59,991 nucleotides of DNA from an uncultured Gammaproteobacteria bacterium (GCA_964551605.1 CAZKCV010000001.1:1-59991), one strand, 5' to 3'. Shown: positions 21,595 to 33,244, counted from the first letter of the stretch. Made by a program: numbers and translations. Notes: generated from the letters alone by a model not told the origin.

Positions 21595-22251
21595 GTGATT
21601 GCAAGGCTTTTAATTTCTAGCTCCAAAGACAGGCTGAAAGAGGAAATAACAGAAATTTTACGCCTCAACCTCTCAGGTTACCGCACAAATCATCTTGATT
21701 TGTTGTATATCCAGGCTGGAGAAAAACTGGGGATTGCGGAAGCCAGGAGGATTAAAAATCATTTTTCCCTTAAGCCATATTCTGCAAAAGGCAAAGCGGT
21801 AGTTTTAGAAGATGCCTCGGTCATGACGGTTGAGGCCCAAAATGCCTTATTAAAGACCCTGGAAGAATTACCGGCAGAAGCCTTGTTGATTTTAGGAACC
21901 AGCTCAGAGGCCAATTTTCTGCCGACTGTCCTCTCCCGCTGCCAAATTATCCACCTTCAAGATACTAACCCCGCGGGTGATACGCACCCAACCCCGGGGG
22001 TTGGAAAGGAAGATATTGAGAAATTGATCAGTTCTTCCGTAGAAGAGCGTTTTGCATTTATTGAAAAGCTTAAAAATAAGGAAGAATTTCTAAAAGTATT
22101 AATTCGGTATTTTAATCAGGATGTAGCCAAAAACAAGAACCTCTTAATGAAGCTTTTACAGGCAGAAGAGTGGGCAAAACAGAATGTCAACATCCGGGCA
22201 ATTTTGGAATATTTAATGCTGGAAATGCCATCGGACCGAAGCACAAAATAA
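21595..22251 (+). CDS. holB: DNA polymerase III delta-prime-like protein (truncated, no Walker A)
   Basis: LGIAEARRI, KAVVLEDA..MT.EAQNALLKTLEE, LPTVLSRCQII. Confidence 0.8.
   Translation: MIARLLISSSKDRLKEEITEILRLNLSGYRTNHLDLLYIQAGEKLGIAEARRIKNHFSLKPYSAKGKAVVLEDASVMTVEAQNALLKTLEELPAEALLILGTSSEANFLPTVLSRCQIIHLQDTNPAGDTHPTPGVGKEDIEKLISSSVEERFAFIEKLKNKEEFLKVLIRYFNQDVAKNKNLLMKLLQAEEWAKQNVNIRAILEYLMLEMPSDRSTK
21666..21690. repeat. In-frame palindrome, family 3 (CAACCTnnnAGGTT + tail)
   Basis: caacctctcaggttaccgcacaaat. Confidence 0.65.
21968..22006. repeat. In-frame palindromes in holB (CCCAACCCCGGGGGTTGG)
   Basis: Encodes NPAGDTHPTPGVG; matches recG 1772-1791 and resembles the family 1 hairpin. 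Confidence 0.7.
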
Positions 22252-22398
22252 TTACAATAATCATATAATTATTTTGTGCGAGGGAGATCGCTTGCAAAAA
22301 TTATCTAAATGATAATTTTTGACAAGGGTAAACCCTGGACCTGCAAATGTCAGTATGCTAAAATACACTTAACCTCATAGAGGTTTTTTAATTGCTAT

Positions 22399-24339
22399 AT
22401 GGCTCAATCCAACAAGTATTCAGCAGAACAAATTCAGGTTTTAGAAGGCTTAGAACCGGTTAGAAAACGTCCCGGCATGTATATTGGGTCTACGGATCTG
22501 CGCGGGCTTCACCACCTGGTTAAAGAAGTAGTAGACAACTCTGTTGATGAAGCCTTGGCCGGCTATGCTCAAAATGTCTGGGTTACCTTGCATGAGGATA
22601 ATTATGTGACCGTGGCTGATGACGGCCGGGGAATTCCGGTTGAGATCCACCCTAAAGTAGGTAAATCTGCTTTAGAAGTCATTATGACTACCTTGCACGC
22701 CGGCGGCAAGTTCGGGGAAGGCGGCTATAAGGTTTCTACCGGATTACACGGAGTCGGTGTCTCGGCAGTTAATGCGCTGTCAGATTACCTCCGGGCAGAA
22801 GTCAGGCGTGACGGCAAGGAGTTTTTCCAGGAATATTCACAGGGCAAGGCTAAAAGCAAGGTGGCCCCATCCACAGCCAACCCTAATTTACCCTTCAAAT
22901 CAACCTTCAGGTGGAACGTTAAAAACGGCACTAAGATTACCTTTCTGGCAGATAAATCAATCTTTTCTGTCATTACCCCGGAGTTTGACAGGTTAGAAAA
23001 ACAACTCAGGCAGGTAGCCTACTTGGTGGCAGGCATCTTTTTTCACCTGTATGATGAACGTTCCGGTCAGGAATACCATTTTTATTTCCAGTCAGGACTG
23101 GCCACTTTAATCAAACACCTTAACCAGAATAAGGTTTTAATCCATCCGGAGCCGATTTTAATTCAGAGGGAGATCTCAGGGGTGGATGTGGAAGTAGCCA
23201 TCCAATACAATGACGGCTTTAATGAAAATGTGGAAAGCTTTGCCAATGTGGTGCCGACCACCGAAGGCGGAAGCCACTTAACAGGGTTTAGGATTGCCTT
23301 GACCCGGGCCATCAATGACTATGCCCGCAAAATTGAAGCCTTAAAAGAAAAGGATGAAAACTTAACCGGAGAAGATATTAAAGAAGGCTTAACCGCAGTT
23401 GTCTCCATAAAGATGGATTCGGATAAAATCCAGTTTGAATCACAAACCAAAGAAAAACTGGGGAATGCGGAAGTTCAACCCTTAGTTTCCCAGGCAGTCA
23501 AAGACGGATTGGATATGTTCTTTGAAGAAAACCCTTCCGATGGACGCAGAATCATGGAAAAGGTCCTTCTGGCAGCCAGGGCCAGGGCTGCAGCCAGAGC
23601 TGCCAAAGATGCCGTTATCAGAAAAGGAGCTCTGGAAGGCATGACTTTACCCGGAAAGCTGGCAGATTGCCAAAACCGGGATGCCTCACAGTCAGAGTTA
23701 TATATTGTGGAAGGAGATTCAGCCGGAGGTAGTGCCAAACAGGGGAGGGACCGAAAATTCCAGGCTATTTTGCCTCTTAGGGGTAAAATCTTAAATACGG
23801 AAAGGGCCAGGTTGGATAAAATCCTGGAATTTGAAGAGATTAAGGCTTTGGTCATTGCCTTGGGTACCGGAATCGGGGACACAGTTGATTACGGCAAAAC
23901 CCGTTACCATCGCATCATCATCATGACAGATGCGGATGTTGACGGTGAACATATCAGGACTCTGCTTTTAACATTCTTCTTTAGGTATCTGCCGGAAGTC
24001 ATCAATAAAGGCTACATGTATATTGCCCAGCCACCGCTTTATAAAGTTCAAAAAGGAAAAGAGATAAATTATGCCTATTCTGATGAAGAAAAGAATGAGA
24101 TCCTGAAAGGCTATAAAGAAGATAATGTCATTATCCAAAGATATAAAGGTCTGGGAGAAATGAATCCTGATCAGCTTTGGGAAACTACTATGAATCCTGA
24201 AAATAGAGTCCTAAAACAGGTCACCGTAGAAGATGCGGTAGCAGCAGATGAAGTCTTTACCATGCTAATGGGAGATGAAGTCCCACCCCGCAAACGCTTC
24301 ATTCAAACTCATGCCAAAATGGCCACATTAGATATCTAA
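22399..24339 (+). CDS. gyrB: DNA gyrase subunit B
   Basis: [54 protein letters not shown]. Confidence 0.98.
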
Positions 24340-24623
24340 TGGATAAAAAATTAGCCACCCACCATAGAAAAATAATTTTAATAACATTTTCTACATTTTT
24401 CGTTTTCGCATCGTTTATAATTGGGGTTTTCTTTATTATTCTTCTATCAATTTTTAGCCATGATTATGAAGAATCAAAATGCTTTGAGGCAATCAATAAG
24501 TGGTATATGGAAAGATATGGCAGTATTGCTGATGTTGAGGGAAAAAGATGGCAACAACATTTAGAGTGCGAAAAGAATATGGGTTTTTTCCCATGGGGCA
24601 AAGAAGCCCGCTTCTCTAAATAA
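24339..24623 (+). CDS. Hypothetical single-TM membrane protein
   Basis: Hydrophobic N-terminal segment, two Cys, translationally coupled to gyrB. Confidence 0.55.
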   Translation: MDKKLATHHRKIILITFSTFFVFASFIIGVFFIILLSIFSHDYEESKCFEAINKWYMERYGSIADVEGKRWQQHLECEKNMGFFPWGKEARFSK

Positions 24624-24639
24624 TAAAACTAATCTAAGC

Positions 24640-31449: not shown

Positions 31450-31450
31450 A

Positions 31451-32556
31451 ATGTGGTGGATGAATCCTGAAACTAAACAGCAACGAAGCTTAACCCTGCG
31501 TCCCATTCCCTCGGAACTGCCAAGTGTGGCGGGTTGGAAAGAAATTCCTATCCGGGAAAATGGTGAACTGCTTATTTCTCTTGGACCATTTTCTGATTAC
31601 CACGAAATCTTTACCAATTCCATTTATTTCGGGGAAAGGACTGACTCTCCTTATAGCACCGATCCGTTAAAGGCTGAAGAGCCTCTTTGTGGCAGTTTAC
31701 TCACCATGTTTGTCAGAGAAGGCGTTGCTAAACAATTAAGCGAAGCTCAACAACTACTTCCTGCCGGCCTGCATCTGATTGTCTTTGATACTTATCGTAC
31801 TTTGGAAGTTCAGCAATCGCTATTTGACAAATACCTCGGGGAGCTAAAAAAACAAAATCCGAATTGGGGTCAGGAACAACTTCTAGCTGAAACTCAAAAA
31901 TATGTTTCCATACCCTCCGAAGATCCCAATAAACCTTCTCCCCACAATACGGGTGGGGCTGTGGACGTAGCAATTTTCCGGTTACCAAAAGAGGCTAATA
32001 AGAGAATTGAAAAAATTGACAAGCAGCTTAAGCTTCTTGGCAATTCAGATTGGCAAGAGGCCTACAGGCTGGAAATGGAAAGGATAAGCCTGATTAACGA
32101 ACAGGCCCGGCTTTTAGAGTTTGGTACGCCATTTGATTATGGTGGCAAAGAAGCAGCTCTAAATTTCTTTGAACGCCTTTCTGCAGAGAGAAAATTATAC
32201 GGGGAAGAGGTTACAGCCAGAGATAACCGCCGTATACTCTTTAATGTCATGACGGCAGCCGGATTTGAACCGTATGAGGATGAATGGGAACAAAGACAGC
32301 CGGGTTAATCTTTGCAGAATACGGAGCTTCTATGCTTTCCCCTGAAAACCTGGCTCATGAAAAAATGCGCAAAGAACACCGCTTAGGCACTCTTCGTTTA
32401 GCGGCAGGATGGCAGGTGAATCCGGCATGGTGGATTGCAAATCCGGGATTCGCCCAACAATATTTCACAGCTGAGCAAACAGCCATGAAAGCTGGAGATT
32501 TCCTAGCCAGTAAACTACCAAAAGCAGCTATTATCCAACCACCTATAAAAAATTGA
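31451..32556 (+). pseudogene. VanX-like D-Ala-D-Ala dipeptidase (M15), split by a frameshifting deletion
   Basis: VFDTYRT, PSPHNTGGAVDV, FGTPFD and RRILFNVM..AGF..Y.DEW are present, but the expected WH.. motif is missing; the C-terminus continues in another frame (32284-32556). Confidence 0.75.
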
Positions 32557-32593
32557 GCTCTACCTATAGAACGGGATTTAGAAAATTGATCAT

Positions 32594-33244
32594 ATGAAAA
32601 CAAGATTCCTAAGGCTCGCTGATCCCGGACTGCGGAAAACCGCTCAGGAAATTACCCAAACTAAGATTAATTCAGCGGACACCAGAAAAATCATTGAAGC
32701 CATGTTGAAGGTGGCTCATGGACAACAAAAAGATCATCAAAAACCCATCATGGTGGGACTGGCTGCACCGCAAATCGGAATATCTAAAAGAATTATTCTG
32801 GTTGACGTTAAAGCAGACGGAAAAGGCCTGCCCGCAACGCCTCGCAAGCTCGGCTTGCGTGGCGGGCGGGGAAAAGTAGGGAACTTAAGAATTTACATCA
32901 ATCCAAAAATCATCTGGAAATCCAAAAGGGCAGGGGAGTGGTATGAAGGTTGTTATTCCACCGACAGAATCTGCGGCATCGTCTCCCGCCCCACCTCCAT
33001 CAAAATCCAAGCATTTGTGCTGCAACCTGAAAGGTTGCAAGCTAAACTAGTAGAAGAAAGGCGGACCGATTATACGGCCAGGATTTTCCAGCATGAAATT
33101 GACCATTTAGACGGCAAAATATTTATGGACCATATCAAAAATCCGGACTACCTGCATTGGGTAGAAGAAAAAGAATTTCCTCTATACAGAAACAAACAGG
33201 CCTGGAGAAATTGGCCCAAAAAATACCCTTTACCCCTTGCTTAA
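32594..33244 (+). CDS. def: Peptide deformylase
   Basis: GLAAPQIG, EGCYS, QHEIDHLDG. Confidence 0.93.
   Translation: MKTRFLRLADPGLRKTAQEITQTKINSADTRKIIEAMLKVAHGQQKDHQKPIMVGLAAPQIGISKRIILVDVKADGKGLPATPRKLGLRGGRGKVGNLRIYINPKIIWKSKRAGEWYEGCYSTDRICGIVSRPTSIKIQAFVLQPERLQAKLVEERRTDYTARIFQHEIDHLDGKIFMDHIKNPDYLHWVEEKEFPLYRNKQAWRNWPKKYPLPLA
32827..32870. repeat. In-frame GC-rich hairpin in def
   Basis: CCTGCCCGCAACGC..CGCAAGC TCG GCTTGCG..TGGCGGGCGGG; encodes LPATPRKLGLRGGR. Confidence 0.7.
33013..33039. repeat. In-frame palindrome, family 3, in def
   Basis: Reverse complement tgcaacctttcaggttgcagcacaaat. Confidence 0.7.

Follow-up and report, generated by a model that had tools for sequence, protein, structure and literature searches.

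Repetitive extragenic palindromes (REPs) and REPINs are short imperfect palindromes dispersed over the genome, and in the arrangement known as a REPtron a single Y1/HUH transposase-like gene, the REP-associated tyrosine transposase (RAYT), is located between two inverted copies, as for TnpA-REP of E. coli (PDB 4ER8) (Nunvar 2010; Bertels and Rainey 2011, PMC3116915). Palindromes can also lie inside genes: intragenic REPs with GTAG or CGTC tags and the Rickettsia elements RPE-4 and RPE-6 are found in genes that often serve replication, repair or the cell wall, where they are read through, and the proteins carrying such residues are presumed functional (Di Nocera, De Gregorio and Rocco 2013, PMC3733652). 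A further related system is IS200/IS605 with its ‘peel and paste’ mode, in which a Y1 HUH enzyme goes together with subterminal hairpins. In this study, a palindromic repeat, named here family 3, was analysed in a stretch of 59,991 nucleotides (nt) from a Candidatus Daviesbacteria genome, deposited under an uncultured Gammaproteobacteria bacterium (GCA_964551605.1, CAZKCV010000001.1:1-59991), referred to as the window, where it lies in the genes holB, murC, murL-murD and def. Family 3 is probably a RAYT-associated family of the REP type, the copies of which survive in frame in protein loops that tolerate them.

As in a REPtron, the family-3 units are short imperfect palindromes at scattered positions, one Y1/HUH transposase-like gene is enclosed by two inverted copies (in related genomes, and around none of the RAYTs of the window), and the HUH and tyrosine motifs of this enzyme are conserved. 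In contrast to REPtrons, family 3 has an apparently low copy number and consists mainly of single units of about 33 nt, for which three arm types are interchangeable and which lack a GTAG or CGTC tag. Over a third of the copies sampled are translated in frame, and the host belongs to a lineage of the candidate phyla radiation (CPR)/Patescibacteria. Lacking the classical tag and departing from the extragenic rule, family 3 is not a plain REP member. We found no paper that joins RAYTs or REPINs with Patescibacteria.

Intragenic REPs, RPE-4 and RPE-6 resemble family 3 in that the palindromes lie inside genes for known proteins and are read as extra residues. However, the family-3 units are shorter and untagged, several hairpin families make use of the same codon positions in different species, and at three of four sites the unit overwrites resident residues. 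RPE-1 to RPE-10, which have no associated transposase, belong to another host lineage and appear to differ in sequence, and for family 3 a flanked RAYT exists. With IS200/IS605, family 3 shares the Y1 HUH enzyme and the subterminal hairpins, and seamless excision with site-specific reinsertion in the manner of these elements would explain empty sites of one length and the reuse of positions. In contrast to them, the family-3 RAYT gene appears to be single-copy and is found at conserved places (next to uvrA, and between cobO and nrdJ at locus L021), the units flanking it are inverted rather than on the same strand, and the dispersed units carry no gene. A DNA uptake sequence (DUS/USS) was rejected as an explanation, since about one motif per kb would be expected genome-wide as opposed to four in 60 kb, all within 11.4 kb.

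The repeat unit and its copies in the window

The motif CAACCTnnnAGGTT occurs four times in the window against a chance expectation of 0.07. A search with CAACCTNNNAGGTT gave six matches (starts at 21666, 24977, 28269 and 33023), because two of the four copies are palindromic on both strands, and none of 100 shuffled sequences reached this number. The expected number of copies and the shuffles rule out a chance origin, so that the sequence-only reading, in which a genuine palindromic family with copies in holB, murC, murL-murD and def had been proposed, is confirmed in this respect. The unit comprises about 33-35 nt, with a stem of 5-8 bp, a loop of 3 nt and two unlike arms around the hairpin. 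Its core is (TG)CAACCT-nnn-AGGTT(GCA), and the non-identical arms, for which the types A (TTTAGCYTGC), B (TTTACGMTGC) and C (ATTYGTGCGGT) were distinguished, give the unit an orientation.

With the def copy in minus-strand orientation, the window copies share, beyond the palindrome, the left arm (T)TTAGCYTG (GCYTG) and the right arm RnCGYACRAAT; the conserved tail GYACRAAT described earlier is thus present in all four. Three of them match the 30-mer consensus without a mismatch, and the holB copy has a 1-nt deletion in the left arm. The arms are of types A and C except in holB (B-like and C), and all copies are of the ‘downstream’ (C...A) type. No further copy was found in the window at one mismatch or by a six-frame peptide scan. 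All four copies are genic, as had been claimed for the family as a whole, although this restriction to coding sequences does not extend beyond the window (see below). According to NCBIfam, the host genes encode a short holB-like delta' subunit, MurC, a MurL-MurD fusion and a peptide deformylase. The copies are located in surface loops or linkers of these proteins, where their translation yields 9-11 residues that are additional or replace others (Table 1). Translation gave the peptides that had been predicted, namely RLNLSGYRTN in HolB, CNLKGYRTN in MurC, VRQPERLQ in MurL-MurD and LQPERLQ in Def, and it is the orientation of the unit that sets which of two frames is read. Only two of the three reading frames are common, because the A arm contains TAG/TAA in the third.

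Table 1. Positions of the family-3 copies and other features in the window, with the corresponding sites in the two closest syntenic relatives, L079 and L080, and sites of a second hairpin core in related genomes.
Feature	Coordinates	Strand	Unit	Arms	Residues or assignment	Site in window	Site in L079	Site in L080
Copy 1, holB (delta' subunit)	21655..21690	+	ATTTTACGCCT-CAACCTCTCAGGTT-ACCGCACAAAT	B-like, C	I-L-R-L-N-L-S-G-Y-R-T-N	TTA CGC CTC AAC CTC TCA GGT TAC CGC ACA AAT	TTA GCT TCC CAC ... AGT GGG AAT ACR AAT	as L079
Copy 2, murC	24967..25001	+	ATTTAGCTTG-CAACCTGAAAGGTT-ATCGCACGAAT	A, C	H-L-A-C-N-L-K-G-Y-R-T-N	family 3, 6-8 codons over empty site	empty	40-residue insert
Copy 3, murL-murD (gene on -)	28259..28293	+	ACTCAGCCTG-CAACCTTTCAGGTT-GACGTACGAAT (+ strand)		F-V-R-Q-P-E-R-L-Q-A-E; linker between MurL_N and MurL epimerase domains	family 3	unrelated sequence, equal length	family 3
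Copy 4, def	33013..33046	-	ATTTGTGCTG-CAACCTGAAAGGTT-GCAAGCTAAA (+ strand)	C arm, core, A arm	F-V-L-Q-P-E-R-L-Q-A-K; beta-hairpin before QHEIDH motif	TTT GTG CTG CAA CCT GAA AGG TTG CAA GCT AAA	degenerate CACCC-type, equal length	TTT GTA TTG ACA CCC CAA GGG TGG AGC CTC AAA; CACCC/GGGTG hairpin, equal length
gyrB candidate (rejected)	22885..22925	+	TCAACCTTCAGGTGGAACGTTAAAAAC
RAYT-like gene	6503-7171	+			Pfam Y1_Tnp
RAYT-like gene	36500-37174	+			Pfam Y1_Tnp
RAYT-like gene	55189-55860	-			Pfam Y1_Tnp
TCCCAC-N7-GTGGGA sites in related genomes	L079 6728; L080 6658; L008 3268; L011 5070; L025 2026; L065 8841/12036; L080 17168

The sequence-only reading would have been refuted if orthologues spelled these residues with other codons and no further copies existed, which is not the case: orthologues that bear the residues of family 3 keep the nucleotides of the stem, and in many others the segment is missing. 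The segments could in principle be features of the host, selected either as a peptide (NLxGYRTN / QPxRLQ) or as an mRNA hairpin that paces translation, with the likeness to the RAYT flanks being secondary. The murL-murD copy, which is present at the same site in L008, L014, L047, L061 and L080, would fit this explanation, as at least six genomes retain it at one and the same site with its core intact, and QPxRLQAK was also encountered in P0124 and P0151, orthologues that were retrieved solely by protein search. However, we consider a host function very improbable, because the same DNA is used in both orientations, in two frames and in varied contexts, which comprise unrelated proteins, intergenic DNA and the surroundings of a transposase gene. 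In addition, many orthologues have unrelated hairpins in place of the segment, the peptides have no common position in any fold, and the segment in MurC is a coil of low confidence in the AlphaFold model (mean predicted local distance difference test, pLDDT, 88.9; residues 60-68 with a dip to about 79).

A weaker candidate had been suggested in gyrB near 22900. In the orthologues of L079, L080 and L083 the residues PFK..F[KR]W.VK are kept, the codons differ and there is no AACCT/AGGTT pair, and to judge from these sequences the candidate is ordinary conserved coding sequence and not a family member.

The partner transposase and the occurrence of the family in related genomes

The three RAYT-like genes of the window are flanked by other hairpins (CACCCCCGGGGTG, CCACCCTCCAGGTGG, CACCCTAGGGGTG) and not by family 3; the absence of family 3 beside them had been stated in the sequence-only reading, which described the family as an orphan. 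The search for a RAYT that is flanked by the motif, which it had proposed as a check, was successful in related genomes, and the term orphan had to be given up. Using the window RAYTs as tblastn queries, a RAYT gene was found 15-45 nt from the motif at 17-18 loci, and at least 17 RAYT genes have the hairpin AACCTnnnAGGTT on both flanks in inverted orientation, with A arms outermost and B or C arms proximal. The upstream unit (...TTAGCTTGC-AACCTnnnAGGTT-GCATCGTAAAC; A arm, core, B arm) ends about 15 nt before the ATG, and the downstream unit (ATTYGTGCGGT-AACCTnnnAGGTT-GCAGGCTAAA; C or B arm, core, A arm) starts about 20 nt past the stop codon. Inverted units with a RAYT between them and the A arms outermost correspond to the REPtron layout. 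Since the repeat brackets a RAYT-type transposase gene in related genomes, family 3 is most likely a REP/RAYT mobile-repeat family and not a true orphan.

The RAYT proteins of family 3 match Pfam Y1_Tnp with 35.7 bits (cut-off 23), and the motifs PNHFH (HUH) and RYIHLNP (Tyr) are invariant. With a profile of these proteins, TnpA-REP of E. coli (4ER8) was the sole match in the PDB (E=5e-4); a search with one single RAYT sequence gave only PPR matches, which were judged spurious. The family-3 RAYTs are 56-79% identical to each other and only 38-49% identical to the three RAYTs of the window, which are therefore not the cognate enzymes. At six or more loci (L006, L016, L024, L037, L044, L065; also L032 and L062) the gene adjoins the 3' end of uvrA, and at L021 a related RAYT with hairpins of the AACCT type (AACCTCSGAGGTT) lies between cobO and nrdJ. 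These positions give the impression of a single-copy gene that is inherited vertically and not of a jumping insertion sequence. The RAYT occurs in the same genome as an in-gene copy in JAQTPP (RAYT at L006, murC copy at L010) and together with other copies in CAZDFU (RAYT at L002; copies in recG at L009, in pheS at L011 and in intergenic DNA at L015). Family 3 thus goes with a single lineage of RAYT-like HUH/Y1 transposases of single-stranded DNA, which occurs in Daviesbacteria and other Microgenomates.

The occurrence of the family was determined with two scans. The first, of species-representative (GTDB) genomes with a pattern of core and right arm, gave 17 loci, which is about the number expected by chance. 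Thirteen of the 17 came from Daviesbacteria- or Microgenomates-like metagenome-assembled genomes (MAGs) with 35-44% G+C, and all 13 carry the left arm TTTAGCYTG, which the pattern did not demand. The second scan, of metagenomes with a pattern of left arm and core, gave 60 loci, nearly all on low-G+C groundwater contigs, and the unconstrained right arms fall into three or four kinds, including that of the window (CCGCACAAAT). Together, the two scans yielded about 80 copies beyond the window in Daviesbacteria-like groundwater genomes; a scan of viral contigs gave one match. In the pooled set of 85-87 non-redundant units, the arm pairs A/C (29) and A/B (21) are the commonest. Of 87 non-redundant copies, 33 lie in frame in genes, one at a contig end is ambiguous, and 53 are extragenic, of which 30 flank a RAYT and 23 are otherwise intergenic. 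The purely genic position of the copies in the window is therefore an effect of local sampling. In-frame copies recur in holB (two sites), murC, murL-murD, def, pheS (at least eight loci), prmC, gatA, recG, mevalonate kinase and others, the names prmC, gatA, recG, mevalonate kinase and the like being our reading of the translated sequences. At about position 1181 of L040, PheS carries VLQPVLQPVLQPERLQAK, in which the arm AGGTTGAAGCAC occurs as a tandem repeat, as if an in-frame copy had undergone slippage.

Several MAGs with the element are titled ‘Gammaproteobacteria’. They are syntenic to the window (pilB-holB-gyrB-murC-murLD...def-gyrA) and their MurL-MurD is 79% identical, and they are therefore Daviesbacteria relatives. 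These MAGs (loci L002, L009, L011, L012, L015, L016 and L080; CAZDFU, CAZAZW and CAYMZD assemblies) appear to be mislabelled Daviesbacteria.

A second core, TCCCAC-N7-GTGGGA, uses the outer arms of family 3 (TTTAGCT... and ...ACGTAAA / ...ACAAAT) at several loci (Table 1); in other genomes, it is present at the holB and murC sites that hold family 3 in the window. Because the A and B arms are also found around this core, different hairpin families share outer sequences.

Is the family still active in the genome of the window, or are its copies only relics? If the cognate RAYT has been lost and the family is extinct in this genome, the four copies would be decaying and would have been kept because precise loss is rare. 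Such a history is possible, though we do not expect it to be the correct one. It agrees with the lack of a cognate RAYT in the 60 kb, with the missing left-arm base of the holB copy, with a 6-nt deletion that follows the murC copy in comparison with P0002 and L010, with the short stems of three copies and with the finding that the closest relative, L080, keeps the murL-murD copy only. However, all four cores are perfect, and the copies in holB, murC and def are absent from the closest syntenic relatives and therefore look recent.

Changes of state at the occupied codon positions

The murC site, located between GHxPxHL and N[VI]DILAVTPA, was compared in 120 MurC orthologues. It is empty (HLENVDIL) in 32 of them, and all empty sites are of one length. 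The family-3 state reads ACNLxGYRT or xCNLEG[YC], other short inserts encoded by hairpins are ASHIGSG, SLHLRGVRT and AFHPKGAGS, and a long state consists of inserts of 20-60 residues; most orthologues with a non-empty site hold other hairpins. Inserts of 30-60 residues (L080 10001-11482; P0012, P0018, P0039, P0047) contain several stacked hairpin-derived segments, e.g., ...YCHPERSEG...QNDK.... In a MurC tree constructed without the columns of the site, the nine family-3 rows need nine changes, of which at least six are forced by well-supported branches; for the 32 empty rows, the corresponding numbers are 26 and at least 14. The clustering of family 3 in this tree is no greater than with shuffled labels. 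Directly after the window copy, at 25002, MurC reads NILAVTPA as opposed to N[VI]DILAVTPA in nearly all orthologues, so that two codons ([VI]D, 6 nt) are deleted abutting the repeat.

The other sites were compared at codon level with L079 and L080. In holB, both relatives have the TCCCAC-N7-GTGGGA hairpin over the identical 11 codons with the outer bases kept, and a native-like HolB is only two residues shorter than one bearing a hairpin. At the def site, which is in the family-3 state in L018, typical deformylases have a 4-residue turn, and the window protein is five residues longer, not 11. Over the orthologues, the net gain is 6-8 codons in murC, two in holB, five in def and zero or three in murL-murD, with the unit measuring 11 codons. 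From the small net change in holB, def and murL-murD, it follows that at these three sites the unit takes the place of part of the resident loop. In alignments that are otherwise conserved, no spots are more variable than the four sites, and together with the coil modelled for MurC residues 60-68 this speaks for loops that tolerate the unit.

These observations raise the question of whether the sites are fixed in-frame sockets, namely the loop of murC between H-L and N, the N-terminal loop of holB, the beta-hairpin of def, the MurL-MurD linker and the pheS loop before GHLHP, which RAYT paralogues repeatedly empty, fill and overwrite with hairpin cassettes of 24-33 nt. This would amount to a domesticated single-strand transposase that performs site-specific cassette exchange in coding sequence, in which the families share arms and the frame and often the length are kept. 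Between the window and L079/L080, about 15 of the 24 inner bases of holB differ and the flanks TTA...ACA AAT are kept, a CAACCT-type and a CACCC-type hairpin are found at equal length in def, and the arms A, B and C are common to the TCCCAC-N7-GTGGGA family. Furthermore, sister MurCs carry different hairpins of equal length (P0042, P0050) or are filled and empty, respectively (P0091/P0045; P0005/P0015), the empty murC sites are of one length, and the rate of state change there is very high. However, an exchange could be mimicked if insertions and deletions occurred repeatedly and independently while loop length was under selection, and the stems CAACCT, CACCT and CACCC are one or two compensated pairs apart, so that some of the differences could have arisen in place. 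The empty murC sites (L079, L082) have no common recognisable target motif, and no excision or replacement junctions were found in the contigs of four metagenome runs. We therefore regard cassette exchange as rather unlikely. A pre-existing target motif TTTAG...AAAT at empty sites, hinted at by the native-like holB of L073, received no support from the empty murC sites of L079 and L082 and is not claimed.

Further differences were noticed in def. At L083 (13270-13689), the gene is called at 139 residues and has a CACCC-CTA-GGGTG hairpin at the family-3 site; its upstream part reads differently, and the gene may be disrupted or rearranged. The Def of the window contains a second insert at 32827-32870 (LPATPRKLGLRGGR), which is not found in L079.

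Proposed mechanism and neighbouring sequence

For the RAYT-associated family favoured here, a mechanism can be proposed by analogy with E. coli TnpA-REP and IS200/IS605. The RAYT would bind the hairpin on single-stranded DNA and cut beside it, the cutting would then copy, remove or replace units, and copies would last only at loops that tolerate them. The in-frame occupancy of hypervariable sites and the repeated change of state among orthologues were observed in this analysis. Several points weigh against this interpretation. The activity of the family-3 RAYT on the unit is predicted by analogy with these other systems, and there is no cognate RAYT in the window. The classical REP tags are not conserved in the arms. 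Three of the four window hairpins are predicted to be weak (-2.5 to -4.4 kcal/mol, z-scores -1.1 to -2.0), with the holB copy at -2.5 and the def copy at -8.9 kcal/mol. The net changes in holB, def and murL-murD (0 to +5 residues) are below the length of the unit, which simple insertion does not predict. Finally, the contigs of the four metagenome runs showed no variant lacking one or another of the four units over 21500-33300, where rare alleles would not be visible in contigs.

The results tie a seemingly orphaned repeat to a specific RAYT lineage and extend the REP/RAYT systems to ultra-small CPR genomes, where over a third of the copies sampled lie inside essential genes and are translated. 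The reuse of codon positions by different hairpin families, sometimes at unchanged length, is unexplained by the standard picture of REP insertion, and family 3 provides a tractable case for studying how RAYT enzymes choose and rewrite their sites. For annotation, segments of 9-11 residues in MurC, HolB, Def, MurL-MurD, PheS, PrmC, GatA and RecG are best read as repeat-derived loops and not as lineage-specific functional motifs.

Identical contigs showed that the organism of the window is present in at least four groundwater runs. In three of the four metagenome runs, contigs join position 24335 to 24714 via ATGATT at a depth above that of the window organism. A related strain or species therefore lacks 378 nt, which comprise a small open reading frame (24339-24623) and the region upstream of murC. 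At 33915-33998, the alignment of GyrA with its family model is split in two by about 35 additional residues.

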